64,000 nt of DNA. Source: a virus. The notes below the pieces were generated by a model, which was given only the letters and a program-made list of their open reading frames with translations, was not told where the DNA came from and ran no database searches. The stretch lies in the IMG/VR virus record IMGVR_UViG_3300029880_000008, positions 22,660 to 86,659 of that record; one strand, 5' to 3'. Each line of letters opens with the position of its first letter. The first letter of the stretch is position 1. Shown here in pieces: positions 8,815 through 62,075 of this stretch. Made by a program: the position numbers and the translations under genes.

Positions 8815-8819
8815 CGTTT

Positions 8820-9457: not shown

Positions 9458-9506
9458 AATTCTTTGTAATTTGGTTAATGGAAGAGGAGCATGCAAGCTC
9501 CCCTTG

Positions 9507-10328
9507 TTAGGCTGTTTCTTTTAGTTTGATTCCATTCTCTTCGAGAGCGTCTTTAATCAGCTCGTCAGAGTCCTCGTAGTACTCTCCCCAGCAGGAATCA
9601 ATCTGCTCCCAGTCGTAGTCGTCCTCCGGCTCACGACCTATTTCCGTGAAGACTTTCTTGTAATGGACTTTCTTCTCTAAGACGAACCCCTTAACATCTC
9701 CCCACATCCAAAGACCTATGCACTTAACCTCATGCTCAAATAGGTCCAAGGCTCGCTTTCTCCAGTTTTTTGTATTAGTGTCACAATACTTTGAGAAACG
9801 CTTCTTGTCGCAGTAGGCATATCCGCTGACATAATCTCCCTGGTTGTATCCAGTAGAGGACCACTCGTAGAATGCAATATCCTTACAATCGTGCAGAAGG
9901 TACGTGAAATCGTCCTCTTCGAGGATATCGCAAAGTTCCTCTCTATAGTCGAATCTCTTCAAGTCGCTCGGGCAGAACTCTTCGTGGTTATACCACTCAC
10001 CCTCGTACAGACTTTCAAGATACCACATGCGGTCACTCTTGTCATAGCGCATACGGTAATTGTCGACGTTTTCACTATTGATATAATCAATAATCTTCTT
10101 TTGTGACACGTAGTTACAAACTAGATCCTTCAATGCATCCTCCGCATTTTTAGCGTTGACTTCGCTGCTACAACCACGAGAAAGCCACCTGTTGTATCCG
10201 TAATCGGAATAGTCCCAGAAGTAAACTCCCACCAAATCCCATTCTGTGCAAGGGCATTCGGCATCCTCATCCTGGTAAATGGTGATTCTGTAATCACCAA
10301 TCTCCTTCTTTGCAAATTCGTAACTCAT
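9507..10328 (-). CDS. hypothetical protein (273 aa)
   Basis: From ORF-track 9507..10340. The second ATG (MSYEFAKK) has the usual spacing to the AACCA leader, but the first ATG at 10340 cannot be excluded. Confidence 0.65.
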   Translation of the reverse strand: MSYEFAKKEIGDYRITIYQDEDAECPCTEWDLVGVYFWDYSDYGYNRWLSRGCSSEVNAKNAEDALKDLVCNYVSQKKIIDYINSENVDNYRMRYDKSDRMWYLESLYEGEWYNHEEFCPSDLKRFDYREELCDILEEDDFTYLLHDCKDIAFYEWSSTGYNQGDYVSGYAYCDKKRFSKYCDTNTKNWRKRALDLFEHEVKCIGLWMWGDVKGFVLEKKVHYKKVFTEIGREPEDDYDWEQIDSCWGEYYEDSDELIKDALEENGIKLKETA

Positions 10329-10383
10329 ATCTAATATCATTTAAATGGTTTAACATTGAATATCCCCATGCTAGGGGATATTG

Positions 10384-10923
10384 TTAGGCTTCCTCATAAT
10401 CTTCCTCCATCATGGAGTGAACCTCTTCAAGCTCGTTCGAGAAATTGTACTTGATGTTGTACGTGCCGAAGGCCTTGAAATACCATTCTTCGAGGTACGC
10501 TCTGTCCTTGTTAGCCTGCTCGCTGTCCTCTGCGGAATCAAGTCGGGCTACCATCTGAGGATACAAATCGTAGTAATCGTCGCCATCGTAGTCTGATGCC
10601 CACCAAACACCTGTTCTGCGCTTAGGGTAGTCCTCGTACAGATTGGCAAAATTGCCATTCATGTGCTGGTCATTAAGATGTAGATATTTCTTCATTTCCT
10701 TGTTTGCCTTATGGGTAAACTCCCACGCAAGAGACTGGATATTCTTTTCGAATACATCTGCAATGTATTCTTCCAGATCTTCTGCGTCATCGAAATTTTC
10801 AAGACACTCACGATAGAGGCTCTCGATAACCGCGGCAAAACTTGCCACACCGATATAATCGGCTACTTTCTCGACAACTTCACCCTTGTTGTTCATAACA
10901 ACTTCTACAATATTCTTTTCCAT
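10384..10923 (-). CDS. hypothetical acidic protein (179 aa)
   Basis: ORF track with a leader unit upstream. Confidence 0.65.
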   Translation of the reverse strand: MEKNIVEVVMNNKGEVVEKVADYIGVASFAAVIESLYRECLENFDDAEDLEEYIADVFEKNIQSLAWEFTHKANKEMKKYLHLNDQHMNGNFANLYEDYPKRRTGVWWASDYDGDDYYDLYPQMVARLDSAEDSEQANKDRAYLEEWYFKAFGTYNIKYNFSNELEEVHSMMEEDYEEA

Positions 10924-10975
10924 AATTCATCTGTTTAATGGTTCATAATGGTTCCCCACATTATCGTGGGGAGGT

Positions 10976-11215
10976 TTAGCCACATATGGCAATGTCGCCA
11001 TAATTTCTGAAGAAATGCTTGTACGCCTCAAGACCACTGGCAGCTTTCAAGTCTTTGACCTCTAGCTTACCGGTATCCTTGCGTACCTCTGCAATAGAGT
11101 ATGTATTGTCGTGCGTCCACTTGATGAGGTCCACACGCCTAACAGGATTCTCTACTGACTCTACGATTTTACACTTCAGTAAATCGTCATTCAGGATTTT
11201 CTCTAATTCACTCAT
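10976..11215 (-). CDS. hypothetical protein (79 aa)
   Basis: ORF track. Start context is AATTATG. Confidence 0.55.
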   Translation of the reverse strand: MSELEKILNDDLLKCKIVESVENPVRRVDLIKWTHDNTYSIAEVRKDTGKLEVKDLKAASGLEAYKHFFRNYGDIAICG

Positions 11216-11224
11216 AATTATAGA

Positions 11225-11380
11225 TTAATTATAGTTACACATTATTTCTGTCTCACTGATAATTTCAGCACAATACTTGCAGCGATGGCACATTATGTAG
11301 CCTTTTGCCAGCAATTTGCTGAACTTCGGATATGGGCATTTCTCGCCCATGCCAGCTCTCGTAATCTCAATTTTCTTCAT
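11225..11380 (-). CDS. small Cys-rich protein (51 aa), zinc-ribbon-like
   Basis: Hand translation: MKKIEITRAGMGEKCPYPKFSKLLAKGYIMCHRCKYCAEIISETEIMCNYN. Leader TAACCAAACAGATTGAAATATG lies upstream. It falls below the ORF-track cutoff. Confidence 0.45.
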   Translation of the reverse strand: MKKIEITRAGMGEKCPYPKFSKLLAKGYIMCHRCKYCAEIISETEIMCNYN

Positions 11381-11437
11381 ATTTCAATCTGTTTGGTTAA
11401 TAGAAATCCACACCCGTGAGAGTGAGGATTGTTTTGG

Positions 11438-11902
11438 CTAATCACCGAAATCGCTTTCGTCCTGATCGTACCACCAGTCCTGGAATCGATTCGCAACCTC
11501 TTCCAATGCATACTTAGCAAATGTGTCGTAGATATTTCTGCTCTCGCCCTCGTTAAAAGGAGCATACAGAGCCTTGCCGATAGCATCATAGGTGACGGAT
11601 TTGTCGTCCTTGAAATTCCCGAAGCCCTTAATCATCGTGATAAGGTCTTCTCCTAAATCATCGGCAAGCTCATGCATATTCTCCATGATAGCACTCTTGT
11701 TCTCGTTCCAGAACTTGCTTGTTTGAGAATGATAACAGAATCCAGTGTACCCCTCATTGGCATTTCTGACCTTATCGAGCGTATTAAGCATTGTGTCTTC
11801 ATTAACACCGCCAAGCTGCTCTACTACGGCATATGCCATCTTTACGAATGATGGATTATCATTTTCCTTGATAAACGCATCCCATACTTTCTGTATATTC
11901 AT
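11438..11902 (-). CDS. hypothetical acidic protein (154 aa)
   Basis: ORF track. Leader CAACCAAAATACAGAAATATG lies upstream. Confidence 0.65.
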   Translation of the reverse strand: MNIQKVWDAFIKENDNPSFVKMAYAVVEQLGGVNEDTMLNTLDKVRNANEGYTGFCYHSQTSKFWNENKSAIMENMHELADDLGEDLITMIKGFGNFKDDKSVTYDAIGKALYAPFNEGESRNIYDTFAKYALEEVANRFQDWWYDQDESDFGD

Positions 11903-11962
11903 ATTTCTGTATTTTGGTTGATAATAGAAACGAGCAAGCGCACCATACGCTTACCCGTAATT

Positions 11963-12181
11963 TTAGCCGAAAACCCAGATAGCCGTAGTTCTTGCACAAA
12001 TGGCATACAGCTTTCCGCTGTGACCACGGAACAGCATTCCGTTGCATCCGTACACACCGGAAGAATAGCCTACCTGACTATATTCTTCCGGGATGGCTGC
12101 ACGGCTTGAACTGTGTGTTATATCCTTGGCAGCTCCTACTCTAACGAGTCTCTTCAACTCTTTCTGTGTCATTTTCTCCAT
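11963..12181 (-). CDS. hypothetical protein (72 aa)
   Basis: ORF track. Start context is AGAATTATG. Confidence 0.55.
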   Translation of the reverse strand: MEKMTQKELKRLVRVGAAKDITHSSSRAAIPEEYSQVGYSSGVYGCNGMLFRGHSGKLYAICARTTAIWVFG

Positions 12182-12243
12182 AATTCTTTAATTTTGATGA
12201 TTTAACATGGTTTCTGTGCAGTCTATCTGCACAGAATGTTTGG

Positions 12244-12420
12244 CTAGAACTTGCGAGGGCGCATGCACGATTGCTCAATCTCCTGAGCCTTTTTGTCTGC
12301 ACGTGCTACGCGTCTGAAATACTCGCTCTTGTCGAGATTCTTGCGTCTGCACTCCTCGCTGATAACTGCCTTGTGACTCGCTACGAGCCTGGCAAGGAAC
12401 TTTCTGTCTCCGTCTGTCAT
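12244..12420 (-). CDS. small basic protein (58 aa), ribbon-helix-helix-like (tentative)
   Basis: Hand translation: MTDGDRKFLARLVASHKAVISEECRRKNLDKSEYFRRVARADKKAQEIEQSCMRPRKF. Leader TAACCAAATCAAAATTCAGAATTATG lies upstream. The stop TAG sits in TAGCCAAAC. The ORF-track 12275..12499 is in another frame and is judged spurious. Confidence 0.45.
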   Translation of the reverse strand: MTDGDRKFLARLVASHKAVISEECRRKNLDKSEYFRRVARADKKAQEIEQSCMRPRKF

Positions 12421-12483
12421 AATTCTGAATTTTGATTTGGTTAATAATAGAAGCAGGACACAGGACGTGCCCCGCTGTTTTGG

Positions 12484-12630
12484 CTACTTGCCACCGCACG
12501 CAATACTATGAGGACAGCAATGAATCTTGCCATCCGTCAATCCGTGAAAGCAGCACCCTACACATCTCTCTGTGACTATATCCCACTCTCGCTCTATTCC
12601 GTGTCTGTCAGTTACTCTTACTGTTTCCAT
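12484..12630 (-). CDS. small Cys-rich protein (48 aa)
   Basis: The internal ATG of ORF-track 12484..12759 (METVRVTDRHG...CVGCCFHG...HCCPHSIACGGK) carries the leader TAACCAAAACATATAGAATTATG. Confidence 0.45.
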   Translation of the reverse strand: METVRVTDRHGIEREWDIVTERCVGCCFHGLTDGKIHCCPHSIACGGK

Positions 12631-12689
12631 AATTCTATATGTTTTGGTTAATAGCAGGCAGCACATTATCGTACTACCCATTTTTTTGG

Positions 12690-12959
12690 CTAGAGATTGT
12701 ACACCGGACTTTCTGAAGCACACAGAATCGTAGGACCGGTGAGGATGGAGAACGCACAAGGGTCGAAACTATCGACTTTCTTCATGCTCTCTATCTTCTT
12801 CTGTACTACATCACGTATGGATGACAGATTAAGTCTGCCGTCGATAGGCATAATAGAATCCATGCCCACCATTTCCACAACGCTCACCTCATCGGTGAAT
12901 CTCATGTTCACAAGGTCAAACTTGTTAATCTTATGATAAAACTGAATCCACTTGCTCAT
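12690..12959 (-). CDS. hypothetical protein (89 aa)
   Basis: ORF track. Leader AAACCAAAAATGTAGAATTATG lies upstream. Confidence 0.55.
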   Translation of the reverse strand: MSKWIQFYHKINKFDLVNMRFTDEVSVVEMVGMDSIMPIDGRLNLSSIRDVVQKKIESMKKVDSFDPCAFSILTGPTILCASESPVYNL

Positions 12960-13008
12960 AATTCTACATTTTTGGTTTATAGGAGAGGGAGAAATAACTC
13001 CCTCAATT

Positions 13009-32264: not shown

Positions 32265-35200
32265 ATGGCAGGTGGAAATATGGGAGACCTCAGTTTCTCG
32301 CTCACTCTTAAATCGAGAATTGAAGAGGAAACCAAAAAGATTACCAAAGAATTAAACAAGATTGATGCTACTGGTAAGCAGGCACAGAATGCTTTGGAAG
32401 CAATATCCGAAGCAACAAAAGGTATTGGAGATAAGGGAGGTCGTAGTTTTGAAAAGCTAAACAACTTCGTTAAAGAATTACGTCGTAACATTGGTGTATT
32501 TTCAAGCGAAGATTTCTTTAGTCCGAAAAAACTCCAGCAGTTGGAGTCTGTCCAGGACGGGTTGTATAAAATAGGTCGCATACTCGGAGAGGTGTCTAAG
32601 GAAGGTGCTGGATTCAACATATTCCCTAACAGCGTTGCAACTGAGGCAAACAGGGCAGAGAGAGAACTTTATAAGTTATCTTCTATTATTGACGAAATCA
32701 ACAAACGCCATGGTGAAGGCATACAGATGTTTGGAGTCGATTCAACGAACAACATACGTCAGTCGTTGTCAGAGCTGTCTAAATACAGAACTGAGTTAGA
32801 ACAGATCAGGAATAACAGAGGTATTCATCCTATCACAGGACTCACAGCAACTGATGTCGTAAAGAGTTCCGGGTATCTTAATGCTATAGATAAAGCAAAT
32901 ACTTATGCAAAGGTTATAAAGGACGCAGCACGCGAGGCAAAAGAGGCAGAGAGGCAACGCCAGAATGATTTGAAGAACACGGAGCGTCGGTATGATTCTC
33001 TCGGAAATAAGGTTCGCCAGCTTCGCTCGGAATACAGCAGGGGCATCTCTATCGGTGCAGATGTGAGCAAGGCTGAAGCCGAGATTAACAGACTTCTTTC
33101 TTTAATGAGAGCCCTTATAAATATTAAGGGAAGACTTAATTCAGAAAACTGGAAGGATAGCCTCGGTTTGCTTGGTAATATTGGTAGTGGCCACGATACC
33201 ACATTGGCTTCGAGAGTCCTTCAAGATCAGAAAGCAGTAAACCGAGAGGTTCAAAGAGGCATTGAGCTGGAGCAGAAGCGTCAGCAGGAGATTGCTCAGA
33301 CGGCTGCAAAGGTTCAGTCTGATTTGGTCCGCGGCTTCGAGAGAGCCAACAGTCATGCAGGAAAGCTGAATTCAACCGTGCAGGATTTGAAGTCACTTTT
33401 CTTGCAGGGAGGTCTTGTGTTCGGCGCACAGCAGTTCGCTATGAGCATCATCACTACTGGTGGTGAGATGGAGAAGCAGCATATTGCTCTCCAGTCAATC
33501 CTTGGCGATATGCAGAATGCGAATACAATGTTCAATCAGATTAAGGAACTCGCTCTTAATTCGCCATTTACATTCTCTGAATTGAACCGAGATGTTAAGC
33601 AGTTGGCTGCGTATGGCGTAGAATACGACCAGCTTTACGATACAACCAAGAGGCTTGCTGATATGTCTTCCGGTCTTGGTGTTAGCTTTGACCGTATCGC
33701 ATTGGCATTTGGTCAGGTTCAGGCTCGTGGCTGGCTCGATGGTAAGGAACTCCGCCAGATTGCTTATGCAGGTATTCCTCTGCTTGAAAAGTTATCTGAG
33801 TTCTACTCTAAGCAAGAGGGTCGAAATGTCTCTACATCAGAGATTAAGACTCGTATATCAAGCAGAGACGTAAGTTTTGATGATGTGAAGTCTATCTTCT
33901 GGCAGATGACTGATGCAGGTGGTCAGTTCTATAATATGCAGCAGGTTCTGAGTGAAACTCTGCTCGGACGCTACAATAAACTGAAGGATGCCTGGGAAAT
34001 CATGCTTGCCGACTTTGCTAATGGCAAGAATGTTATAGGTGGAACTTTCAAGGGTATTCTTGATGTTGTCACCAATCTCGTGCAGCAGATTCACGTCTTG
34101 GGTCCTGCTATGGTTGCGGCATTCGCAGGTCCAGCCCTTATGCGTGGAGTTAAGACCCTGGAAGGCGGCATAGGAAAGAGGATACTGAACTCTAAGGGAA
34201 ATATTGCGAAAGAAGCAGAACTTAAGCTTTTGCGTGGAGAGAAAATAACTCCTGTAGAGAAACAGATTCTTCAGTACAAAAATCAGATTCGGATTCAGGA
34301 TATTCAGGCACTCGCGAAGGCGAATGCGATAACAAAAGCCGAGCTCAGGCGATTGTATGTTACCGGTCAGATAACCAAGGAGATGTACAAGCAAGGTATG
34401 GCTCTCACCAAACAGGAGGGTCAGGTAAACAGAATCTCCCTTGGTGGAGTACTGAAGGGATTGGCTAGCCCTAGCAAATGGGAAGCAGCAGGAGGTTTGC
34501 TTCTCGGAGGATTGAAATCAGGATTCAGTTCTATCATCGGTTTTCTTGGTGGTCTTCCAGGAATAGCTATATCTGCCGGATCTGCAATCTTTGCATACTA
34601 CTGGGAGAAGCATCAGCAGTTGAAACAGGATATGGAGACTACGGCTGACGAACTGAAAGACAGGTACACTCAGATTGGCGAGTTCCTTCGCGATAACGAT
34701 GCAGATAAAGCCATTAAGGACGGCGATGAGAAAGAGATAGAAAACCTCATTGACGCATATAAGGAAAAGCTTAAGGAGATTGCTCCAGAAAAGGAGAATG
34801 CTTTCACTATGAGCCTTCTTGAAAAGAAATCGAATGAGGACAGACTTAAGTATCTCAAAGAACAGCTCATTCTTCTCAAGCAGGTTGAGGAGAGTACTCA
34901 GAAATCTCTTTCGGACGAGGGTACATACAAGGGATTCGACGAGAAACTGTCTTCTGCAAAGGAGATAGCAGAAGCATTCTCTTCAGCATCCGCAAAGGCG
35001 AATATGATTAATGCCACCCAATCCGACTTCGCTAGCTTCAACTCCTGGGAGGAAAAGTATAAGGATGAGGTGAAAGCCATGCGCGATTATCTCATTGATG
35101 AGCTTGGAGATATTAGCAACAGCCCGAAGTTGCAGGGTAAGGCTAACCAGATTCTTTCGTCATTCTTTGCAAAGCAGGGATGGAACCAGGATGTTTCTGA

Positions 35201-38200
35201 TCAGTTCCGTGCTGACGTTCTTAATGCGATGGGTGTTGAAACTGGCTTCTACGAGAACAAATTCAAGGATGCTCTCGATAACGCAGTAAACACTTCGTTT
35301 CCCTGGATTGGTGACAAGATTCGCAACAACCAGGAATTGACAGATGCAGAGAAGGTACAGGTTTCAAACATGATGAAGGATGCTGCGGCTCAGGTTCAGA
35401 AAGACTATCCTTTTGCATCAGACGCATTGAAGCGAATGCTTGCGGCTGATAGATTCGAGGCTGTCATTCATCTCGTATTCAGGAACGATGACTCGGATCT
35501 CACTCAGCAGCTCGAAAAGAATCTCAAGGGTAGTGGTTACGACTACCATGAGAAGAACAAGTACGTCAAGAGCTGGGGAAAGGATGCCGGATACGACTAC
35601 GATAAAGCAAAGAGCAACGCAGAGTCGGACATTACTTCTGCAAAAAAGGAACTCAACACCAGAAAGAAGATGCTTGCGCTGGGCAATCTTTCTCTCGATG
35701 AGTTTACACAGAAGCAGAAGGAGTACGAACTTAAGATGCAGGCTTATCATGATAACTGGGGCGAATGGTTTACTGGTGACGACAAGAAGAAAAACAAGAA
35801 AACCGGTGGCCGTAGGTCAACAGGCGCGCAGACAGATAAGGCTCTTGAAGATTTGAGGAAGCGCATCGACTTATACAAGAAGATGTATGCTGAAATCAAG
35901 AAGTTTAAGGAGCTTTATGGAGAAGGTGCTCTTGGTCAGCTTGCTAATGACGGAGAGTTTGAGGCTATATTCAATGATAAAAAGAGATTCCCTATCTCCG
36001 ACTACACCAATTATGAGACCTCTATTAAAGAACTCTTGAAGACTCTCCCGGCCTCAACAAGGGAGAGATTGGACTATGCTGCAAACGAGAAGGCTGGCAT
36101 TCAAACTGAAAACCGAAAACTTCTCGAAGACCAGCGCAGAGACGAACTGAATGTACTCAATAAGCAACTTGATACTATATCTGAGCAGTATGAGACATAC
36201 AAGAAGATATATGAGCTGACAGGAAACAAGAAGGGTTCAGAAAACATAGCTTTCGGAGGAACTGTCCAGTTTGATACATACAAGAGGTTCCTGGAGGAGC
36301 AGCTCGATATTGCGGTAAAGCACGACAACGTTCAGTCCGGCCTTAACTTGACTACGGACGAGGTTAAGGGAATGAGTCTTGAAAATGTCAAGGATAAATA
36401 TGGCGATGAGACTCGTGTTTACGATATCCGCAAGAAACTGGAAGATGAGAACAACAAGATCAAGAAGGAGACCATCGACCTGATGACTAGTCTTATTGAA
36501 AAGAATGCAACCATCGCCCAACAGATTGAGGATGAAAACCGTAAATACGAGAGACAGCTTGAACTCATCAAGGGCATCGAAGACCCACAGATGAGAGACA
36601 GAGCCAAGGCCGGAGCCACAAAGACTCACGATGAGAATGTGGCAAAGCTTCAGTTCGAGCAGTTTAAACAGGAATCTGATTGGTTTTCCATCTTTGATGA
36701 CCTCGACAGGGTGGCTTCCGCTACAATAGACTCAATGATTGAGAAGATTGACCAGTTCTCAATGACTACCGGTTTGTCTGTAGAATCTATCAAACAGTTG
36801 AGGGACGCTTTGGATAAGCTCAGAAATGAGCAGATTAGCAGAAACCCGTTCGGCTTCATCTTCGGAGGGGTGAATCGCGGTAAGGCTATCGGAAAGTTCA
36901 TAAATGAGCGTCTTGGCGGTATGGACGATACTGCGAAGATATTCATCAGCAAGGAGGATGCTTCGAGACTTGGAATAGCTGGCGGCGTAAGAACCAAGGC
37001 GAGTCTGAAGAATGATCAGCAGTCAGCATACGCCGACTCGTCTAAGGCCATCTCTGAACTTGCGACAAAGATGCAGGCGCTCAATACGGTTCTTGCCCCG
37101 GTAATCAATCTGTTCAAGGCTATGGGTGAAGAGGATTCAATCCTTGGTCAAATTGTAGGTGGAGCATCAGGCGCATTCTCTTCGGCAGCAAGTACAGCCG
37201 GGGCTTTTGATACCCTCGGCAAAATGGAGGGTCTCGGGTTCCTCAAAGGTGCTGGTCCATACGCAGCAGCCGCTTCCGCAGCGTTGAGCATTGGCGGCTC
37301 GCTCATCAAGGCGTTCGGTGCAGACTACAGCAGCTACAACAAGGCGAAGGCTGAGTACGACAACCTGACCTCAATTTGGGATTCTCTCATCTCCAAGAAG
37401 ACTGAGTACATGAACATTCATTGGGGTACAGAGGCTACAGAGGCATCCAAGGAAGCTCAGGAAATGCTTAAGGCGGAGATTGAGCAGACCAAGGTTATCG
37501 CCCAGAAGAGGCTCAATTCTGGTGCTTCTGCCGGATCTCATTCTATTTGGTATCGAATGTGGAAGGGTTCGTACAAGTACAATGGTCAGAATTGGCGTGA
37601 TGTAGCAGGAGAAATTTCTTCAAAGTACGGAGTTCAGTTCAATGGAATGGAGGATATGCTCAATATGGACGCCGATACTCTTTCAAAGATAAAAAAGGAT
37701 TATACCGGTCTTTGGGCTAGTATGGACTCTGAGTTCAGGGATTACCTGGAAAAGCTCATTCAGTACGGAGAGAAGGCTGATGATATGATTGAGTCTCTTA
37801 CAGAGAAGCTTACCGGCAACAAGTTCTCCGACCTAGTGTCTTCTTGGGGAGATGCTATGGCTACGATGGCAAACACGTCAGACAATCTCGTTGACCATTT
37901 CGAGGAAAATCTGAAGAAGACCATCTTGAATTCAATGATTGAGAATAAATATGGAGACAAGATTAAGGCTCTTTTGAAGAAGACTCAGGGGTACGCAGAT
38001 AATGGTGACAAGATTAAGGATTCCAACGGAAATGTAATTTCAGAATACACAGGAGCCGAGTATGCCGACGTAAAGAACAGTACAGATGAGCTCTCAAAGC
38101 AAATCGAGGCAACGAGAGATTACCTTAAGAAAACTTACGGATGGTCAGATAATAGCAGTTCTTCTTCTAGAAATTCCATTAAGAGTATCACTGAAGAGAC

Positions 38201-38447
38201 TGGTGACCTTATCGCCAGTTACCTCAATGAAATCAGGGCTGATTGTGCAGTAATGAGAGCCGAGCAGGCAAAGTACTATCCGGAGATGAGTGAGATTGCG
38301 AAGTCACAACTGACGCAGCTCAATGTGATTGCTCAGAATACTCTTCGCAATGCTGATGCAGCCGAGAGGATTGAACGCATATTCGTGGAGTACAACGACA
38401 ACTTCAACAGAGTTCTCAACGGAACAAAATCTTTAAAGATGAAGTAA
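32265..38447 (+). CDS. tail tape measure protein (2060 aa)
   Basis: A very long helical, coiled-coil-rich ORF after the chaperone pair. A hydrophobic/Gly-rich central segment is present (GGLLLGGLKSGFSSIIGFLGGLPGIAISAGSAIFAYYW). Confidence 0.9.
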   Translation: MAGGNMGDLSFSLTLKSRIEEETKKITKELNKIDATGKQAQNALEAISEATKGIGDKGGRSFEKLNNFVKELRRNIGVFSSEDFFSPKKLQQLESVQDGLYKIGRILGEVSKEGAGFNIFPNSVATEANRAERELYKLSSIIDEINKRHGEGIQMFGVDSTNNIRQSLSELSKYRTELEQIRNNRGIHPITGLTATDVVKSSGYLNAIDKANTYAKVIKDAAREAKEAERQRQNDLKNTERRYDSLGNKVRQLRSEYSRGISIGADVSKAEAEINRLLSLMRALINIKGRLNSENWKDSLGLLGNIGSGHDTTLASRVLQDQKAVNREVQRGIELEQKRQQEIAQTAAKVQSDLVRGFERANSHAGKLNSTVQDLKSLFLQGGLVFGAQQFAMSIITTGGEMEKQHIALQSILGDMQNANTMFNQIKELALNSPFTFSELNRDVKQLAAYGVEYDQLYDTTKRLADMSSGLGVSFDRIALAFGQVQARGWLDGKELRQIAYAGIPLLEKLSEFYSKQEGRNVSTSEIKTRISSRDVSFDDVKSIFWQMTDAGGQFYNMQQVLSETLLGRYNKLKDAWEIMLADFANGKNVIGGTFKGILDVVTNLVQQIHVLGPAMVAAFAGPALMRGVKTLEGGIGKRILNSKGNIAKEAELKLLRGEKITPVEKQILQYKNQIRIQDIQALAKANAITKAELRRLYVTGQITKEMYKQGMALTKQEGQVNRISLGGVLKGLASPSKWEAAGGLLLGGLKSGFSSIIGFLGGLPGIAISAGSAIFAYYWEKHQQLKQDMETTADELKDRYTQIGEFLRDNDADKAIKDGDEKEIENLIDAYKEKLKEIAPEKENAFTMSLLEKKSNEDRLKYLKEQLILLKQVEESTQKSLSDEGTYKGFDEKLSSAKEIAEAFSSASAKANMINATQSDFASFNSWEEKYKDEVKAMRDYLIDELGDISNSPKLQGKANQILSSFFAKQGWNQDVSDQFRADVLNAMGVETGFYENKFKDALDNAVNTSFPWIGDKIRNNQELTDAEKVQVSNMMKDAAAQVQKDYPFASDALKRMLAADRFEAVIHLVFRNDDSDLTQQLEKNLKGSGYDYHEKNKYVKSWGKDAGYDYDKAKSNAESDITSAKKELNTRKKMLALGNLSLDEFTQKQKEYELKMQAYHDNWGEWFTGDDKKKNKKTGGRRSTGAQTDKALEDLRKRIDLYKKMYAEIKKFKELYGEGALGQLANDGEFEAIFNDKKRFPISDYTNYETSIKELLKTLPASTRERLDYAANEKAGIQTENRKLLEDQRRDELNVLNKQLDTISEQYETYKKIYELTGNKKGSENIAFGGTVQFDTYKRFLEEQLDIAVKHDNVQSGLNLTTDEVKGMSLENVKDKYGDETRVYDIRKKLEDENNKIKKETIDLMTSLIEKNATIAQQIEDENRKYERQLELIKGIEDPQMRDRAKAGATKTHDENVAKLQFEQFKQESDWFSIFDDLDRVASATIDSMIEKIDQFSMTTGLSVESIKQLRDALDKLRNEQISRNPFGFIFGGVNRGKAIGKFINERLGGMDDTAKIFISKEDASRLGIAGGVRTKASLKNDQQSAYADSSKAISELATKMQALNTVLAPVINLFKAMGEEDSILGQIVGGASGAFSSAASTAGAFDTLGKMEGLGFLKGAGPYAAAASAALSIGGSLIKAFGADYSSYNKAKAEYDNLTSIWDSLISKKTEYMNIHWGTEATEASKEAQEMLKAEIEQTKVIAQKRLNSGASAGSHSIWYRMWKGSYKYNGQNWRDVAGEISSKYGVQFNGMEDMLNMDADTLSKIKKDYTGLWASMDSEFRDYLEKLIQYGEKADDMIESLTEKLTGNKFSDLVSSWGDAMATMANTSDNLVDHFEENLKKTILNSMIENKYGDKIKALLKKTQGYADNGDKIKDSNGNVISEYTGAEYADVKNSTDELSKQIEATRDYLKKTYGWSDNSSSSSRNSIKSITEETGDLIASYLNEIRADCAVMRAEQAKYYPEMSEIAKSQLTQLNVIAQNTLRNADAAERIERIFVEYNDNFNRVLNGTKSLKMK

Positions 38448-43807: not shown

Positions 43808-45031
43808 ATGCCAATAGTTAGTAATAAGGCGAATAGAAAATTCGCCCCTTTGGACGTTTCTGTATCAGTAGTGTGCGCATCGCCTAAGTCTCCATTCATG
43901 CAGACTATGGCTGGCGATAAATTCTTCCCAGACAGAACACAGAGCGGCTTTGAGTGTATTGCCTACCCGAGTATCAATGCTACGGCAAAGGATGATTCAT
44001 GGGATAGCAAGCAGTCGAATATGTCTCTTGCCAATATGGTATGGAAGGTTTCTACGGGCACGGAATGGAAGAACATATCTAAAATTAATTCTTGGAGCGG
44101 TAATTATAGCATTGATACAAGCAATACATCTAATCGTGGTTCGCTTACTATCAAGAGGAATCTTTCAAGTAATGATAAGCAGCAGTTGCAATTCGAAGCT
44201 GACCTGTATGATTATAGAACGAATTCTATATTGCATATCACCGCTGACCCTATTACTCTGTATACGGCAGATAAGGGTGCAGATACCTATGGTATGGGTA
44301 TTCGGGAAGATACCGATATATCCTATAACCCATTCCTTGATAAGCTGGCTCTCTACGAGTATAAGGTTGCTAATAACATCATATCGGCATCTACGGAAGC
44401 AAGAAACGCTTGCTTTGACGGCAATCAGTATGAATGTCACATTCCGATTGATGTATATAAGTCTAAGGATAGAATTACAAGCGGATTCTCTATTGAGCTG
44501 TATCGAGGAACGACTAAGATGTCTGCTTCTTCTGCTGCAAGCCCTAACGAGATTATATCTATCTCCACATCTGAGATTGTGCTTGACCTTAGACTTGTAG
44601 AGAAGAATAATTATACCATCAAGGCGGTAATAAACGGCAAGGCTGTTGCTCAGTTCCAATTTTCCGCTTCTAGGTTCTATCCTTCTTTCAATCAGCCTAA
44701 GTTCATGGTATGCAATGATATTGAATGGGGTAAGATATACAGAAGCAACAAGGCTATTTTGGAGTACAACGGAAGGGTTGTTGAATACCCTAACCGCATC
44801 GTAGAATTGCAATGGCATACCGAAGCAACTAACGGTAATATCGTCACAAGTAAGTCTTGGCAAGAGGGAGATTCATGCTACTTCTCAATCAAGGAATCTG
44901 GTCTTGGCGATGTTGAGAGCGATTATCTTGAAGAACAGATAGAATACGGACAGAGACCTGCCAACGACTATCTCCTTGACGAAGGTGACAATTACTTGCT
45001 TGATGAGAATGGCAATCCGTTGATAGATTAG
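43808..45031 (+). CDS. tail fibre/baseplate-associated structural protein (putative)
   Basis: 407 aa. SD TAGGAGGAACGCTTATG lies upstream. Called by synteny. Confidence 0.45.
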   Translation: MPIVSNKANRKFAPLDVSVSVVCASPKSPFMQTMAGDKFFPDRTQSGFECIAYPSINATAKDDSWDSKQSNMSLANMVWKVSTGTEWKNISKINSWSGNYSIDTSNTSNRGSLTIKRNLSSNDKQQLQFEADLYDYRTNSILHITADPITLYTADKGADTYGMGIREDTDISYNPFLDKLALYEYKVANNIISASTEARNACFDGNQYECHIPIDVYKSKDRITSGFSIELYRGTTKMSASSAASPNEIISISTSEIVLDLRLVEKNNYTIKAVINGKAVAQFQFSASRFYPSFNQPKFMVCNDIEWGKIYRSNKAILEYNGRVVEYPNRIVELQWHTEATNGNIVTSKSWQEGDSCYFSIKESGLGDVESDYLEEQIEYGQRPANDYLLDEGDNYLLDENGNPLID

Positions 45032-45053
45032 TAACATTTAAAATATAATATAT

Positions 45054-46277
45054 ATGGGTGTAAAATTAACAGAGAAACAAGTCGTGTCGGCAATGAATGC
45101 CGACCAGACCTTTCTGATTGTTGCCGATGGTGCTCTTCGTAGATTAAGCCTCGGTGACCTTCAGAAGATGATGGGTAATAATATCTTCTACCCTACAATC
45201 ACTTTGGAGCAGTCTTCAAATCCGAAGTTTGATTTACCTACACCATTTATGGCTAGCATGTATCAGAGAGCGATGGGTGGATATATGATGAAGGTAGTTA
45301 ACGGTAAGGTGTATGCTGCAAAGCTAAACCCTAGTAACTGGGAGTTCTTTGCTGACGGAACACAGGTGGATGATGCCTCTAAGTATGAGACGATGGTTCA
45401 TCTTCCCGATTGCCATTTCAAGGCTGATAATAAGACTTTGCAATTCGGTGGTCTATTCCCTATCTCAGGTGGCAAAACCTTCGATTCTCCTAATTGGGTA
45501 GGTGCTTACGAAATGTATGTAGATGGTAATAGTGTAGGACATTCCATACCAAACGTTTCGCCATCGCATTCTAGGACTATGAGTAGCTTTTGGTCTTGCG
45601 CACAAAAGCTTGGTTCTAAATTCGGTCTTGCTAACTACGGATTTCAATGCCTTATAGAAGCACTGTATCAGGTAAGTTTTGGCAATCTCAATAGCTCAGC
45701 CGTTATAGGTTCGGGATTCCAAAGCTCATCGTGGGAAGCATGTCGTGATGTACCGATGGGTAAGTGTATATCTCTCGGTGATGGTAGCGGTAAGGTGCTC
45801 TATAACGATGCTACTCTCGGTAATCAATACCCTGTCAAATTATTTGGCTTTGAGGATTTATGGGGTAAGCTTTGGGAGTTCCGTCCAGGAATACGTTTCT
45901 ACATGGATGGAGATACCAGATACGCTGTTGTCTATAGCGGTAATCAGGTAAGTAATACGGAAAATGGGCGAAAATTTACCATTCCGTCATCAGCTAATGG
46001 AGAGTTTATTACACGAAAGACACTGGGTGCATATTGGGATGCGTTTCCGCAAGCAGTAGGAGGCGGTGATAGCACGTACTACTGCGATGGATTCTGGGCT
46101 TCGATAAATGGCGAGCTGCTGTACGTTGGGGGTTACGCTAACGCCGGGTCGCGATGCGGTCTTTCGTCTGCGTCCTCGAACGACGGTTTCTCGCTCTCGT
46201 GGCCGAGCATCGGCGCTCGCTTGGCTTTCTACGGAAACCCGACAATCGTGAGCGGTTCGGAGCTCATGGCGATGTGA
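45054..46277 (+). CDS. DGR target protein: receptor-binding tail fibre with C-terminal CLec/FGE-type variable domain
   Basis: 407 aa. The C-terminus GELLYVGGYANAGSRCGLSSASSNDGFSLSWPSIGARLAFYG contains the VR and ends in an IGARLA (GFR-like) motif typical of DGR CLec-fold targets. Confidence 0.85.
   Translation: MGVKLTEKQVVSAMNADQTFLIVADGALRRLSLGDLQKMMGNNIFYPTITLEQSSNPKFDLPTPFMASMYQRAMGGYMMKVVNGKVYAAKLNPSNWEFFADGTQVDDASKYETMVHLPDCHFKADNKTLQFGGLFPISGGKTFDSPNWVGAYEMYVDGNSVGHSIPNVSPSHSRTMSSFWSCAQKLGSKFGLANYGFQCLIEALYQVSFGNLNSSAVIGSGFQSSSWEACRDVPMGKCISLGDGSGKVLYNDATLGNQYPVKLFGFEDLWGKLWEFRPGIRFYMDGDTRYAVVYSGNQVSNTENGRKFTIPSSANGEFITRKTLGAYWDAFPQAVGGGDSTYYCDGFWASINGELLYVGGYANAGSRCGLSSASSNDGFSLSWPSIGARLAFYGNPTIVSGSELMAM
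46113..46232 (+). repeat. DGR variable repeat (VR)
   Basis: It aligns without gaps over 120 nt to 46488-46607. There are 18 mismatches and every one is at an adenine of the TR. It starts in frame at a codon boundary of the target gene. Confidence 0.95.
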
Positions 46278-46279
46278 GA

Positions 46280-46294
46280 CAACGCCTAGCGTTG
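46280..46294 (+). other. short hairpin just after the target stop codon
   Basis: CAACGC-cta-GCGTTG. DGR targets often carry a hairpin 3' of the VR. Confidence 0.35.
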
Positions 46295-46487
46295 GCTGCA
46301 CATCTGCCAGTGAGCTAGACAGAAATAGAGAATTAATAAAAATAATGTAAAACGCAAGATTGAAACTGCAAAGTTGAAATCTCCTTATAATAGGATTCGC
46401 AGAAGCACAAAAATATAAACAACCCATTTCCGTGCGATAAGATTTTCTACAACCATGGAGTGGGTGAAGAAAAGGTGATACATCATG

Positions 46488-46607
46488 GAGCTGCTGAACG
46501 TTGGGGGTAACGCTAACAACAGGTCGCAATGCGGTCTTTCGTATGCGAACTCGAACAACGGTTTCTCGAACTCGAGGACGAACATCGGCGCTCGCTTGAA
46601 TTACTAC
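46488..46607 (+). repeat. DGR template repeat (TR)
   Basis: It would encode ELLNVGGNANNRSQCGLSYANSNNGFSNSRTNIGARLNYY, which is rich in AAC/Asn codons. It lies in non-coding DNA between the target and the RT. Confidence 0.95.
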
Positions 46608-46910
46608 ACAAGATTTCTATTATTAGAATGACGATATAATTTTCACTGTTCCTCGCAAGTCGTAAAGCTACGAGATAGTTTGGACGAGAGAGCACATGAT
46701 TGAACCTGTCTCAATGGAAGGATATTTATCCCGACAGAGCAAAGATTAAAGGCGTTGGGTATGAGTAGTTGGGTATGTCCTACTTGCAACAGAGTCCCCT
46801 CTCGCAAGTAAGTGATACAGTTGTACGTATGTGCCGAAAGCCAGTGAGCCGATAGTGTAGAAAGCCTATTGATAAGGAAAGCGATTTTTGAAATATTGGT
46901 TGATATAGAA
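46608..46910 (+). ncRNA. DGR spacer region of the TR-containing RNA
   Basis: About 300 nt without ORFs lie between the TR and the RT start. Small hairpins are present (for example TCGTA-aagc-TACGA). It is analogous to the Sp region of characterised DGR RNAs. Confidence 0.5.
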
Positions 46911-48281
46911 ATGACGGACACACAAGAGCTGGCGTATAAGCGAAAGGCTAAACTTCGCAAGAAGCATAGAAAGGTCAGAGTAGAGCTTGTCAGTGATATG
47001 ACTAACCTCAATATTGCGGTAAGGAAATCACGCAAGGGTAAGGAAGGCAAGAAGGGAGTTGTGATATTCGATAAAGACTATAATGGTAATCTTTTGAGAT
47101 TACAGAGAAGTCTTATAGATGGAACTTACAAGACCAGCGAAGGGCACGATTGTATGAGACGATGCCCTTGCGGTAAGGTAAGAAAGCTCCATAAGCTTCC
47201 GTACTTCCCAGACCACGTTGAGCAGCATGCCTTGATGCAAGTTCTGATGCCGCACCTTATAAGAGCTCTCTATATAGAGAGTGGGGCAAGTGTAAAAGGC
47301 AGAGGAATGATTTATGCGAAGCGCAGAACAGAACGATGGATAGACGAGAATAAGTCATGTGGAAGATTGTACTATTGCAAACTTGACTTCGTTAAATTCT
47401 ATGAGAACGTAGACCAGCAGGAGATATACAAATCTCTGTGTGATTTCTTTACTGATAAAGGCGTTAGAAGGCTTTTGCATGAAGTTATCTTTGCCTTACC
47501 GAAAGGTCTAGGTATTGGTCTATATCCTATTCAGACCCTTACCAATTTCTACATGAGTATCTTATGTAGATTAGTATGTAGGAAATTTGATGTTAAGGTA
47601 GAAATATATTGTGATGATGTCATTATATTGGGTAAAAACAAGAAGGAAGTATGGAAAGCCATCAACTTCATATTGGAATATGCTAATAAAGTGATGCACC
47701 AGCAGTTGCACGATAATATCGGAATGCAGATAATTGATGATACGCATTTCCTTGATTTCGTAGGATACCGTTTCTACTTCAACCATACAATGTTAAGAAA
47801 GCGCATGAAAGAGAAATTCAAAAAGAAGATGCACAACCTTAAAAATCCTATGAGGAGATACCAAGTAGCTATGAGCTACAAGGGTTGGTTGATGCACTGC
47901 GATGGTTTTAATCTTTGGAAAATGATAACAAAAATGAATAGTTTTGATGATTTTAAGATGCCGCAGATTGAGGACAGAGATGCCAACGGCAAGAGAATGT
48001 TTGAAGGTCAGAGGATGAGCGCAAGCTACTTTTCCGAGAGACCTATCGTTTTCCTTGATGTTGAATTTGACGTAAACAGCAAGGTTCATAAATCGGGGAA
48101 GAGCAATGTTGTCAGCGTTGAGGAGAACGGACAGAAGTTTAAGTTCTTCACTAACAACAAGAAACTCGTAGAGCAGTTGAAATGGTGCTCAGACAATGAT
48201 AAATTCCCGTTCCTGGGAAAGTTGCGTAGAATGAATCAGAGTGGAAACCCTGATTTCAGAATTGTAGGAACAAAAGCATAA
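46911..48281 (+). CDS. DGR reverse transcriptase
   Basis: Motifs: LPYFPDHVEQHALMQVL, YYCKLDFVKFYENV, LGIGLYPIQTLTNFYM (the DGR-type IGxxxSQ-like motif 4) and YCDDVIILG (YxDD). ORF-track 46869 (TTG) is trimmed to the first ATG, so the start is uncertain. Confidence 0.9.
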   Translation: MTDTQELAYKRKAKLRKKHRKVRVELVSDMTNLNIAVRKSRKGKEGKKGVVIFDKDYNGNLLRLQRSLIDGTYKTSEGHDCMRRCPCGKVRKLHKLPYFPDHVEQHALMQVLMPHLIRALYIESGASVKGRGMIYAKRRTERWIDENKSCGRLYYCKLDFVKFYENVDQQEIYKSLCDFFTDKGVRRLLHEVIFALPKGLGIGLYPIQTLTNFYMSILCRLVCRKFDVKVEIYCDDVIILGKNKKEVWKAINFILEYANKVMHQQLHDNIGMQIIDDTHFLDFVGYRFYFNHTMLRKRMKEKFKKKMHNLKNPMRRYQVAMSYKGWLMHCDGFNLWKMITKMNSFDDFKMPQIEDRDANGKRMFEGQRMSASYFSERPIVFLDVEFDVNSKVHKSGKSNVVSVEENGQKFKFFTNNKKLVEQLKWCSDNDKFPFLGKLRRMNQSGNPDFRIVGTKA

Positions 48282-48313
48282 AAGTATAATATTTAAAAAG
48301 AAAGGATATTATC

Positions 48314-48724
48314 ATGGAAATTAGAAAGTCTACATTTGATTACTCACCTAGTCTGATTGAGTATGAGGGTAATTTTATTCGCATCAATTTCGATGTTGAG
48401 CAGGTTGAGTTGGAAAATAATATGGGTAGCAGCGAAGGCAAAAAAACTACCCGAATGGCTTATGCCGCACACGTTGTCCGTATTGAGCAGCCTTTGGAGC
48501 GAGGTAAGATAGTTGATGCAATCGTCTCATCCGCTTATCCGACCGACAAGATGCAAGCTATCATCAACAACCATTTCGCCAATCTTGCCAAAATTGCGGA
48601 TGGCAAGAAGCTTGATGCCGATGATAAGGAGCATGAAGCAGAGTATGAAGCTATGCAATCATGGCGCACGAAGGCGAAGGCTGTAGCTACGGATGTTATA
48701 GACAATTATATCAGCACTCATTAA
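48314..48724 (+). CDS. hypothetical protein (136 aa)
   Basis: ORF track. The protein is acidic and not Avd-like. Confidence 0.6.
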   Translation: MEIRKSTFDYSPSLIEYEGNFIRINFDVEQVELENNMGSSEGKKTTRMAYAAHVVRIEQPLERGKIVDAIVSSAYPTDKMQAIINNHFANLAKIADGKKLDADDKEHEAEYEAMQSWRTKAKAVATDVIDNYISTH

Positions 48725-48741
48725 AAGGAGGATAATAGCCT

Positions 48742-49884
48742 ATGAAAAAGGTAGTACATCTTTTTGCCTCGCAGCGTGTCAACCGCAAGGCACGTACTGA
48801 CAATGAAGAGGTATTCAGGGAGAAAGTTACGCTCATTACCAACAAGGAGATGAGTATCGGTCAGCTTGCAGACTTTTCTCAGTTGGTTAAGGATTTGGCT
48901 GCGGCTGGTATTGTTATTAGCGGAAATCAAGTTGCTATTAAGGGCGATAAGGTAACTATATACAATAAAGATAAAGCTACTCTCTTTGCCGAAGATGGCA
49001 AGCTCAATGCTAGCCTTATTAATGCAGAGACTATCAATGTGAACCATGTTTATGCAAGGAGTTCGGAAGGTGCAAGTATCATAGGCCATTTTGGTAACTT
49101 CGATAAAGCCGATGCTGTAGTAGGTAGTGATAAGTGTCCGCTTTGGCTTGGTGCAGCATTGGCAAAGGATGCGCCATTCAGAGTAACGAAAGATGGTTAT
49201 ATATATGCGTATAAGGGTATATTCGCAGGAGAACTGAAGAGTGTGACAGGCTCTTTTTACAGATTGACTGCTGTTAGTTCTGATGGAAATAAAATCGCTG
49301 GTTCAATATATTTTGATGGTTCTGGCCGTATAACATTTGATGCAGATATTTATAATCAAGGATATAATTCTGCGGCGAAAAGGGGTTGGCGTTTCTATGC
49401 TAGTAATGTATGGTGTCGTTCAGCCTTTGGGCATCGACAGAGTACATTGGCAGTAGTATCTGGGGATGTTATGCAAGTTTATCCTGACGGATACGATAGC
49501 GAAAGAATACCTGTGCCTCTAGAGCGTGTTTCTTATGACAATAAAACCGTATACAAAATTCCATTGTATAGTCCTAATGAAAATTTGTCCGGATGTCCTA
49601 TTGATATAGTAGTATTCAGTCCTCTTAGAGCAATTGCTACATATTATTACGAGTTTGTACCTGGAGGAACAGGTAAGCGTTGGATGGCAATAAATGCCAA
49701 TGACAGTAATAATGGAATATATTTCTGTGATGTCGGTGGATGGCATCAACTTCATGGTGGAGAAACAATAAATCTTGTATATATAAACCCAGAATTACTT
49801 ATTCCTAGCCAGGAGGATAAGACCTATTTCGGTCGTGGTATCTTCTGGAGCGGAGTAAATGACTTGAATTGGTCGGATAGATAA
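48742..49884 (+). CDS. tail fibre-like structural protein (putative)
   Basis: 380 aa. SD AAGGAGGATAATAGCCTATG lies upstream. Called on composition and position. Confidence 0.45.
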   Translation: MKKVVHLFASQRVNRKARTDNEEVFREKVTLITNKEMSIGQLADFSQLVKDLAAAGIVISGNQVAIKGDKVTIYNKDKATLFAEDGKLNASLINAETINVNHVYARSSEGASIIGHFGNFDKADAVVGSDKCPLWLGAALAKDAPFRVTKDGYIYAYKGIFAGELKSVTGSFYRLTAVSSDGNKIAGSIYFDGSGRITFDADIYNQGYNSAAKRGWRFYASNVWCRSAFGHRQSTLAVVSGDVMQVYPDGYDSERIPVPLERVSYDNKTVYKIPLYSPNENLSGCPIDIVVFSPLRAIATYYYEFVPGGTGKRWMAINANDSNNGIYFCDVGGWHQLHGGETINLVYINPELLIPSQEDKTYFGRGIFWSGVNDLNWSDR

Positions 49885-61544: not shown

Positions 61545-62033
61545 TTACTCAGTTACAACCTCCCAATCTTCCGCAAATACATCAGATACGGAAGGAACCC
61601 AAGAATCTGCTCTTCCATCTGGATTGATGATAAGCATCTGATTAGTATAGTCAATGTGAGGATTCTCACGGTTCATCAAGATGATCTTGGCAGACTGAGG
61701 GAGTGACTGCATATTAGGAATGATGTCACCTGTGATATGAGAAGGAACCTGCTTAACGATAAACAATCCCTTGCCATTCCATCCCTTGCGTCTTACCGCA
61801 AGACCTGCCTTCAATAAGTCAATAGCACCACCGAAGTTAACAGAGCCTACTTCACGATAGGCTTCCTCAAACACACTCTTAGGAGACCAAGACTTATATC
61901 CGTCCTTGTAGTCTACTAAGTAGCCATCTTCCTCAACGGTTGCTGGCTTAATTTCTCTACCAAGCACTATCTGTGCTTCTGTCATAGTCATAGGCTCTGC
62001 CATAATGACCTTTGTACCAATAAACTTTTTCAT
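61545..62033 (-). CDS. DUF2829-domain protein (Tad2-like candidate)
   Basis: ORF-track 61545..62057 trimmed to the ATG (MKKFIGTK). The C-terminal half FGGAIDLLKAGLAVRRKGWNGKGLFIV...SWVPSVSDVFAEDWEVV matches the DUF2829 signature (A...lk.G..v.R.gWnGkg....W.ps..D.lA.DW). Confidence 0.7.
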   Translation of the reverse strand: MKKFIGTKVIMAEPMTMTEAQIVLGREIKPATVEEDGYLVDYKDGYKSWSPKSVFEEAYREVGSVNFGGAIDLLKAGLAVRRKGWNGKGLFIVKQVPSHITGDIIPNMQSLPQSAKIILMNRENPHIDYTNQMLIINPDGRADSWVPSVSDVFAEDWEVVTE

Positions 62034-62075
62034 AATTACTTTATATTTATATCCCATTAGGGATGGTTAGTTTTA

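Follow-up and report, generated by a model that had tools for sequence, protein, structure and literature searches.

The diversity-generating retroelement (DGR) of BPP-1, with the gene order mtd-avd-TR-brt, transfers sequence from a template repeat (TR) to a variable repeat (VR) with changes at adenines only, and its VR lies in the C-terminal C-type-lectin (CLec) domain of a tail protein. According to Wu et al. 2018, avd is present in ∼74% of DGRs and absent from 26%, and the Avd-less elements of their Lineage 3 include a group, 3A, that is limited to Bacteroides and relatives. Phage-borne DGRs of an Avd-less type are already known from Hankyphage (Bacteroides phage p00) and from LoVEphage and Quimbyvirus, which are prophages of Bacteroides and Phocaeicola. 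In this work, we analyzed 64,000 nucleotides (nt) of viral DNA, positions 22,660 to 86,659 of the IMG/VR record IMGVR_UViG_3300029880_000008 (hereafter the window), and positions 45054-48724 of this stretch hold a DGR that is a member of the same Avd-less type (Table 1).

From the two repeats of this element, their variation in related genomes, and an intact reverse transcriptase (RT), we conclude that it is very probably a functional DGR of a LoVEphage/Quimby-like tailed phage. As in BPP-1, the transfer from TR to VR is restricted to adenines and is directed into what appears to be a C-terminal CLec-type domain of a tail protein. A DGR as such is ordinary for a gut phage of the Bacteroidales type. 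What goes beyond the prior literature is an uncatalogued structured RNA, a conserved acidic partner, and comparative support for pairing between the primer and the initiation of mutagenic homing (IMH) element in an Avd-less lineage. The published analysis of RNA conservation in DGRs was confined to Avd-containing elements, and the homing step of the DGR mechanism has been called poorly understood. The family described here is a large natural experiment on the Avd-less DGR, with >90 loci that have a deeply conserved RNA supported by covariation, a candidate priming segment that tracks the VR-specific flank, and two candidate protein substitutes for Avd, and it gives concrete coordinates at which questions of Avd-less RNA conservation and of the homing mechanism can be asked.

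The order of the cassette in Hankyphage is the same as in the window (target with VR, short gap, TR, a spacer of ∼200-300 nt, RT, and a small acidic open reading frame (ORF)). The Hankyphage RT is 32% identical to the window RT, with the C-terminal extension included, and no Avd homologue is annotated there, as in the window; Benler et al. reported only that a small ORF near the Hankyphage RT resembles Avd in size and charge. The two elements differ in the length of the target, which is >2,200 amino acids (aa) in Hankyphage and 407 aa in the window, and in the phages that carry them, as Hankyphage is a Mu-like transposable phage whereas the phage in the window is LoVEphage-like.

LoVEphage and Quimbyvirus are the closest phages overall, with a TerL protein that is 59% identical to that of the window, and the closest cultured phages by TerL infect Bacteroides and Phocaeicola. 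LoVEphage also has the same tail-gene synteny as the window, with its RT downstream of the target, and the VR alleles of nearly identical Quimbyvirus genomes have been reported to carry substitutions at 22 adenine sites. The RT of LoVEphage and Quimbyvirus is split over several reading frames, whereas the window RT is one intact ORF. In addition, Quimbyvirus has two VRs, one of which lies in a defence island, whereas the window has one; a scan for further VR-like copies on either strand of the window found no second VR. In the LoVEphage record MW660583 (L104:7822-9365), the RT is annotated as a protein of 271 aa, and a thumb-like continuation is found in a separate 194-aa ORF further on.

When the cassette was compared with 50,697 phage records by megablast, no match was found, and its relatives were identified by protein searches and in IMG/VR. 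A scan of species genomes identified four contigs from metagenome-assembled genomes (MAGs; L107-L110) that contain this DGR family, with RTs that are 63-79% identical. The bin labels of these contigs (Lachnospiraceae, Candidatus Melainabacteria, Oscillospiraceae, and 'bacterium') are mutually inconsistent, which suggests that they are phage contigs mis-binned into MAGs.

Table 1. Positions of the parts of the DGR cassette in the window
Feature	Position	Strand	Basis or remark
Target gene, 407-aa tail-module protein	45054-46277	+	VR is residues 354-393, near the C-terminus
Variable repeat (VR)	46113-46232 (mutable tract 46114-46209)	+	Pair with TR, allele diversity
GC-rich box TCGGCGCTCGCTTG, common to VR and TR	46210-46223 (TR copy 46585-46598)	+	Near-invariant in related loci
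VR-specific flank GGCTTTCTAC (IMH-like)	46223-46232	+	Fixed differences; complement of 46857-46866
Long imperfect hairpin, cruciform-capable, spans target stop codon	46261-46316	+	28 nt 3' of VR
Hairpin upstream of TR, probable 5' part of DGR RNA	46423-46464 (apical loop UUUUCUAC at 46443-46450)	+	Loop pairs with 46857-46864
Template repeat (TR)	46488-46607	+	30 adenines; non-A sites invariant in 23 TR copies compared
TR-specific flank GAATTACTAC (IMH*-like)	46598-46607	+	Counterpart of VR flank GGCTTTCTAC
Conserved structured RNA, 221 nt, TR-RT spacer (counterpart of BPP-1 'Sp')	46647-46867	+	Covariation, covariance model
GUAGAAAGCC, RNA 3' decamer, probable cis-priming and IMH-pairing segment	46857-46866	+	Complement of VR flank
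DGR reverse transcriptase, 456 aa	46911-48281	+	Pfam RVT_1; BPP-1 bRT profile and fold match
Acidic 136-aa ORF directly 3' of RT, candidate accessory (CH1-like)	48314-48724	+	pI (isoelectric point) 5.2; PHROG 11557, function unknown

The VR/TR pair and its diversity in related phages

A repeat finder recovered VR and TR as a direct, ungapped pair of 120 nt with 85% identity, which bears out the gapless alignment proposed in an initial annotation made from the sequence alone. When the two were compared base by base, 18 mismatches were found; at 18/18 of these sites the base in TR is A, and the base in VR is T, G, or C. TR contains 30 A in 120 nt, and the hypergeometric probability that all 18 mismatches fall on A by chance is ∼8e-14. 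Each of the 18 sites is at position 1 or 2 of a codon of the target ORF, and together they alter 14 codons. The initial annotation was exact both in this number of codons and in the two peptide strings that it quoted for TR and VR.

The same annotation had ascribed all 18 differences to mutagenesis, and this part of its claim did not stand, whereas their placement on TR adenines did. Among 24 VR alleles, taken from the window and 22 related viral contigs, sites 46224, 46225, and 46228 have the same base in essentially every allele (46224 deviates in one), and the last four TR adenines, which correspond to VR positions 46224, 46225, 46228, and 46231, show no variation among VRs. Because they are constant among the alleles, the differences at 46224, 46225, and 46228 (3 of the 18 in the window) are fixed differences between VR and TR of the IMH/IMH* type and not products of mutagenesis. 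Of the 26 TR adenines in the mutable tract, 15 are replaced by another base in the window VR. The theoretical repertoire of TR is ∼4.5e15 variants at the DNA level and ∼4.4e14 at the protein level, and mutagenesis of the TR adenines cannot create a stop codon.

The sequence elements at the end of VR also follow BPP-1, in which a GC-rich box is succeeded by flanks specific to VR or TR and a hairpin is found after VR. In the window, the GC box follows the last mutable A, precedes the fixed VR/TR differences, and is the counterpart of the BPP-1 (GC)14 element, and the two flanks have the same relation to one another as IMH and IMH* in BPP-1. Folding of the 105-nt DNA stretch that includes the hairpin (46226-46330) gave -27.1 kcal/mol, with a centroid of -22.9 kcal/mol for the hairpin alone and z = -5.8. 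Most of 18 diverged loci likewise have a hairpin here, although its sequence differs among them, and it is long and unbroken in 14/18. All of the directional cis elements (GC box, IMH/IMH* flanks, and hairpin after VR) are therefore present by position and sequence, and they are predicted to function as they do in BPP-1.

The diversity of this element in related phages was analyzed by querying IMG/VR with TR after each A had been replaced by N. This query returned 24 viral contigs that are 85-95% identical to the window across its 42-51 kb region, and each of them contains a copy that matches every non-A site. In related contigs, the TRs are near-invariant, and the VRs differ from one another at TR-adenine positions. 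Nucleotide diversity was 0.584 at the 26 TR-adenine sites of the mutable tract, 0.107 in the target gene just upstream of VR, 0.008 at the other VR sites, and 0.000 at the TR non-A sites, and the contrast within VR is inflated, and in part guaranteed, by a query pattern that fixed the non-A sites. This bias is mitigated by 10 loci that were caught through TR alone, as their VRs have only 0-2 non-A changes (L005, which has a drifted TR, has 9). Polymorphism restricted to A sites, the check that the initial annotation had proposed for VR, was in this way observed across related genomes. As the diversity at adenine sites is far above that of the other VR sites and of the upstream part of the gene, comparison of these sequences indicates that the DGR has evidently been active in the lineage of this phage.

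The same pattern is seen in more distant relatives. In ∼70 loci with RTs that are 50-100% identical to the window RT, the order target/VR, TR, spacer, and RT is kept, and the VR/TR mismatches are adenine-dominated in almost all of them. When 119 full-length homologues of the target were aligned, the most variable (highest-entropy) columns were the AAC-templated residues 357, 361, 363, 364, 374, 376, 377, 381, and 385, where as many as 16 amino acids occur in one column. The protein database contains 1,486 clusters of proteins related to the target; the RT, unlike the target, collapses into few clusters, one of which has 2,797 members. These numbers describe a widespread phage group that keeps re-targeting a putative tail lectin.

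Some relatives have TRs from which adenines have been lost: 12 in L005 (3631-3750), a cluster of 7 in both L011 (8582-8701) and L021, and 1-3 in many others (L020 among them). The non-A sites are unchanged in all of these adenine-depleted TRs. In L011, VR carries the altered bases of TR, indicating that VR was rewritten after TR had changed, whereas in L005 it does not. The adenine-depleted TRs point to occasional mis-homing of mutagenized cDNA into TR or to gene conversion from VR to TR; either process, if true, would progressively freeze positions.

Reverse transcriptase, spacer RNA, and proposed homing mechanism

The initial annotation had recognized an RT with DGR-type motifs downstream of TR, and analyses of its sequence and predicted fold agree. 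Homologues of this protein begin at the same ATG, which places the start of the intact ORF at 46911 and not at an upstream TTG. When a profile built from 76 family members was searched against the Protein Data Bank (PDB), the best match was the BPP-1 RT, bRT (8ub7, E 4.9e-27), with RTs of group II introns and retrons at ∼1e-8, and an AlphaFold2 model of the window RT (pLDDT 86) had the same structure as its top Foldseek match (target-normalised TM 0.86). The BPP-1 enzyme is the nearest solved relative of the window RT, with an identity of only ∼23%. The catalytic residues D159, D235, and D236 are conserved, and so are the template-contacting residues that correspond to bRT R74, I181, G182, and Q187, so that the active site is intact, and motif 4 reads IGLYPIQ in the window RT and IGSLTSQ in bRT.

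The RT and thumb occupy approximately residues 1-340 of the window protein, and an extra C-terminal domain is found at approximately residues 345-456 (47943-48278). This domain of ∼110 residues lies past the end of bRT, which does not have it; it is beta-rich and basic, and it is conserved in the family. C-terminal extensions were reported in ∼20% of DGR RTs (Wu et al. 2018).

The spacer between TR and RT comprises 303 nt in the window, including the 221-nt conserved RNA, compared with 144 nt between TR and brt in BPP-1. In loci with RTs that are 50-75% identical, the spacer keeps long invariant blocks that are broken by hairpins of variable length. In a blind scan, covariation was obscured by clade-wise co-inheritance, and a structure built by hand and assessed with controls was used instead. 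This structure contains six helices and was tested on 31 sequences (alignments A4 and A5), in which 97.9% of the cells are paired and both partners change in 14 pairs; 0/500 shuffles reached its score, and slid controls gave 0-3. An alternative pairing of GGUAU (columns 163-167) with AUACC (columns 249-253), predicted on A4, was rejected, as it clashes with helices P3 and P4 and varies on one side only. Folding of TR plus spacer as a single sequence was no better than shuffles (z = +0.5), and the structure emerged from comparison alone.

A covariance model of this RNA (R1) identified a single site in the window, with a score of 222.9 bits, and, in four loci outside its training set, a single site per locus upstream of the RT, with scores of 194-211 bits. 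The model had no counterpart in the spacers of Hankyphage or LoVEphage. A search of Rfam gave no match at E <= 1 over positions 44000-49000 and none at gathering scores across the window. The hairpin upstream of TR is probably the 5' part of the same RNA, as its loop UUUUCUAC can pair with GUAGAAAG at the RNA 3' end (46857-46864). When this pairing was analyzed in 18 hand-assembled sequence pairs, 97.9% of the cells were paired and 3 pairs covaried. Pairing between segments upstream and downstream of TR resembles the 'cPRT Stop' duplex of BPP-1. No Bacteroides-type TAnnTTTG promoter motif was found in 46200-46950, and a sigma-70 scan was uninformative.

The decamer GUAGAAAGCC near the 3' end of the RNA is complementary to the VR flank GGCTTTCTAC at all 10 positions. 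Each of the two 10-mers is unique in the window, and a match of this quality was reached by 0/2000 shuffles. The end of VR could be located in 91/95 loci, and in 88/91 of these the RNA is complementary to the VR flank over 8-10 contiguous nt, whereas complementarity of the decamer to the TR flank is interrupted in every locus. At a Y/R position, a synonymous T/C difference in VR covaries with A/G in the decamer.

In BPP-1 (L111, 2743-2886, - strand), the spacer segment after TR is likewise more complementary to the VR flank than to the TR flank. Nucleotides 48-56 of its Sp region, AGGUGGUCA, which end at the priming nucleotide A56, are a 9-nt perfect complement of the VR IMH, a match reached by 12/2000 shuffles, whereas they are complementary to only 5 nt of the TR IMH*. 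This relation had already been observed by Naorem et al. In Hankyphage (7 nt; 474/2000 shuffles) and LoVEphage (6 nt; 1395/2000 shuffles), no significant match was obtained by the same test.

Naorem et al. (PMC5703328) proposed that pairing of a cDNA-linked RNA primer with IMH is the basis of directionality in BPP-1 and that the downstream hairpin aids strand invasion. In the mechanism that we propose for the window element, an RNA would be transcribed from the hairpin upstream of TR, through TR, and into the 221-nt structured spacer. The RT would copy TR to cDNA, misincorporating opposite adenines, and this cDNA would replace VR in a CLec domain of the type found in Mtd and in TaqVP (a DGR variable protein considered below). 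Up to 16 codons would be rewritten in this way, giving ∼4e14 protein variants and no stop codons.

By analogy with BPP-1, GUAGAAAGCC would prime the cDNA next to the GC box, at approximately TR position 46597, in which case the three TR adenines 3' of this site would never be copied. A cDNA start beside the GC box could explain why 46209 is the last mutable site and why the flank differences are never overwritten. The decamer, still joined to the cDNA, would pair perfectly with the VR flank and not with the TR flank, which would make the transfer one-way, and the hairpin after VR would help strand invasion.

BPP-1 has an avd gene, whereas no avd, HRDC, or MSL gene was found at the window cassette, in which an acidic ORF follows the RT. 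The order TR then RT fits the Avd-less type of Wu et al., and the 210 nt between the target stop codon and TR leave no room for an ORF. The initial annotation called this DGR complete, a term that is appropriate to an Avd-less architecture and not in a wider sense, since an Avd gene was not found.

An acidic ORF is found right after the RT in 21/21 related loci examined as well as in the window (125-229 aa, pI 4.5-5.5), a constancy that is not seen in the other flanking genes. By tblastn, the ORF of the window had detectable similarity to those of loci with RTs as little as 50% identical. The window protein had no relative in the PDB and no PADLOC match, and comparison with the 161-aa post-RT ORF of Hankyphage gave an hhalign probability of 4%, with two collinear motif resemblances only. 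Wu et al. 2018 described an acidic protein, CH1 (160-169 aa, pI 4.7), that occurs solely in Avd-less cassettes (architecture E). We infer that the RT C-terminal domain, the acidic post-RT protein, and the large RNA are candidates for the role of Avd.

Taken together, these features suggest a more specific model, which we put forward tentatively and which may well fail in one part or another. In this model, the element performs Avd-independent mutagenic retrohoming and belongs to an RT subfamily in which the 221-nt multi-helix RNA, clamped to the upstream hairpin, acts with the beta-rich RT C-terminal domain and the acidic partner to replace the Avd pentamer in organizing the template-primer complex. 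The three-way covariation among the upstream loop, the RNA decamer, and the VR flank would then argue, on comparative grounds, that the direction of homing is set by RNA-DNA pairing at IMH.

The target protein and alternative explanations

The target matches PHROG 5302 'tail protein' (1.7e-32) and aligns along its full length, with 30% identity, to the protein of LoVEphage that is annotated as 'tail collar fiber protein'. It had no Pfam match, even at E <= 10, and no PDB match was obtained with a shallow profile. A deep profile of the C-terminus (A3) alone succeeded, matching TaqVP (PDB 5vf4) with E 3.5e-20 and, weakly, Mtd with E 0.013, the latter exactly at VR. TaqVP, the variable protein of a Thermus aquaticus prophage DGR, is the best solved relative of the target C-terminus, and VR aligns to its variable C-terminal segment, a likeness seen by sequence profile only. 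These matches support homology of the target C-terminus with TaqVP and Mtd, two DGR variable proteins of the C-type-lectin type.

Macadangdang et al. found that the targets of prophage-borne Bacteroides DGRs ('domain group 2') are most like TaqVP and suggested that they are receptor-binding parts of tail fibres. By its profile, the window target is of this TaqVP-like kind. Its C-terminal module of 278 aa also ends the proteins of 951 representative clusters, whose N-termini vary and include LRR, Big_2, and CBM domains.

The target comes fifth after the tape-measure gene (32265-38447) within one co-oriented tail block, and portal, terminase, and capsid genes are also present in the window. The cassette follows the tape-measure gene and large tail genes, in agreement with the initial annotation, which had placed it in a tail gene cluster. 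From this synteny and the annotation of relatives, we infer that the target may be a tail fibre and that its diversification could serve tropism switching.

The gene just upstream of the target (43808-45031) also encodes a protein of 407 aa, which has no family match. It was considered as a paralogue of the target and rejected, as the two have no similarity. Its product is 38% identical to a LoVEphage protein that is encoded nearby in the tail block, in a non-adjacent position.

Several points, besides the query bias noted above, weigh against the reading of this element as a functional DGR that diversifies a receptor-binding protein by the mechanism proposed here. The evidence for activity comes from a comparison of related genomes and not from reads of a population or from this copy. 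No Avd-like Pfam match was found in the 27 small or neighbouring ORFs of the window that were scanned, and with Avd not found, the mechanism cannot be assumed to be identical to that of BPP-1. Priming at ∼46866/46597 and pairing of the RNA with IMH are proposed from complementarity and analogy only. An AlphaFold2 model of the target made with 42 close homologues had a pLDDT of 30 and was unusable, with neither the fold nor the exposure of the variable residues visible in it, so that the CLec-like C-terminus of the initial annotation is upheld by the profile matches and not by a structure. The binding of a host receptor by the target is a role predicted from its context and relatives.

The simplest alternative, that VR and TR are an ordinary duplicated segment that has diverged by point mutation or selection, with an RT nearby by coincidence, has nothing in its favor beyond the direct repeat itself. 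It is already refuted, and we give it practically no weight, as every mismatch falls on a TR adenine with the negligible chance probability given above, the same adenine asymmetry is present in ∼70 independent loci, and conservation of the non-A sites of VR far exceeds that of the gene around them. It could also be proposed that the cassette is a fossil, a DGR that was active in the ancestry of this phage but has stopped diversifying in this copy, with VR preserving the last event. The signs of activity come from related genomes and not from this copy, and the depleted TRs of relatives (12 adenines short in L005 and 7 each in L011 and L021) indicate that cassettes of this group can decay. We consider it very improbable, however, that this copy is one of them, as its RT ORF is intact with all family-invariant residues present, its TR has all 30 adenines, its VR has no non-A mismatch, and its spacer RNA scores over the full length of the family model. 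In addition, nearly every related contig has a distinct VR, which argues for frequent recent events.

A different question is what the diversified protein binds. The DGR could be real and its target a virion-surface lectin for another ligand, such as mucin or capsular glycans that keep the phage near its hosts, in which case the payoff would not be strict tropism switching. Such a role would suit a C-terminal module that is joined to very different N-termini (LRR, Big_2, and CBM), and a role in mucus adherence has been suggested for the Hankyphage target; the related Quimbyvirus also diversifies a non-structural protein, and 'tail protein' and 'tail collar fiber' are annotation labels only. 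We nevertheless regard this as unlikely, given the position of the target as the fifth gene after the tape-measure gene in a co-oriented tail block, the same synteny in LoVEphage, and the one case that has been tested, BPP-1 Mtd, which is a receptor-binding protein. Diversification of a receptor-binding tail protein by a functional DGR is the reading that we prefer.

Other features of the window

The window contains a second RT, unrelated to that of the DGR. This 421-aa ORF (7014-8279, - strand) matches PADLOC RT_UG27 end to end (E 4e-227). UG27 systems are known from phages and have been described as comprising two accessory proteins and arrayed noncoding RNA units of ∼150 nt that are copied to short cDNAs. 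Beside the UG27 RT, at 5820-7013, is a region of ∼1.2 kb with raised GC content and no convincing ORF. The UG27 start motif AUC-N7-UANAG occurs five times on the - strand within 5885-6888, with four of the copies spaced by 155-188 nt, and five times in the rest of that strand.

At 61545-62057 (- strand), a 170-aa ORF with a domain like Tad2 (Thoeris anti-defence 2; Pfam E 1.4e-18) is a probable phage counter-defence gene. In the region 3210-12994 (- strand), a motif of 31-39 nt, TCATAATTCT...TTGGTTAAT, recurs at many starts of leftward genes; its coding-strand form is ATTAACCAA...AGAATTATGA. The motif has the appearance of a promoter or translation-start region that is common to a block of early or middle genes.

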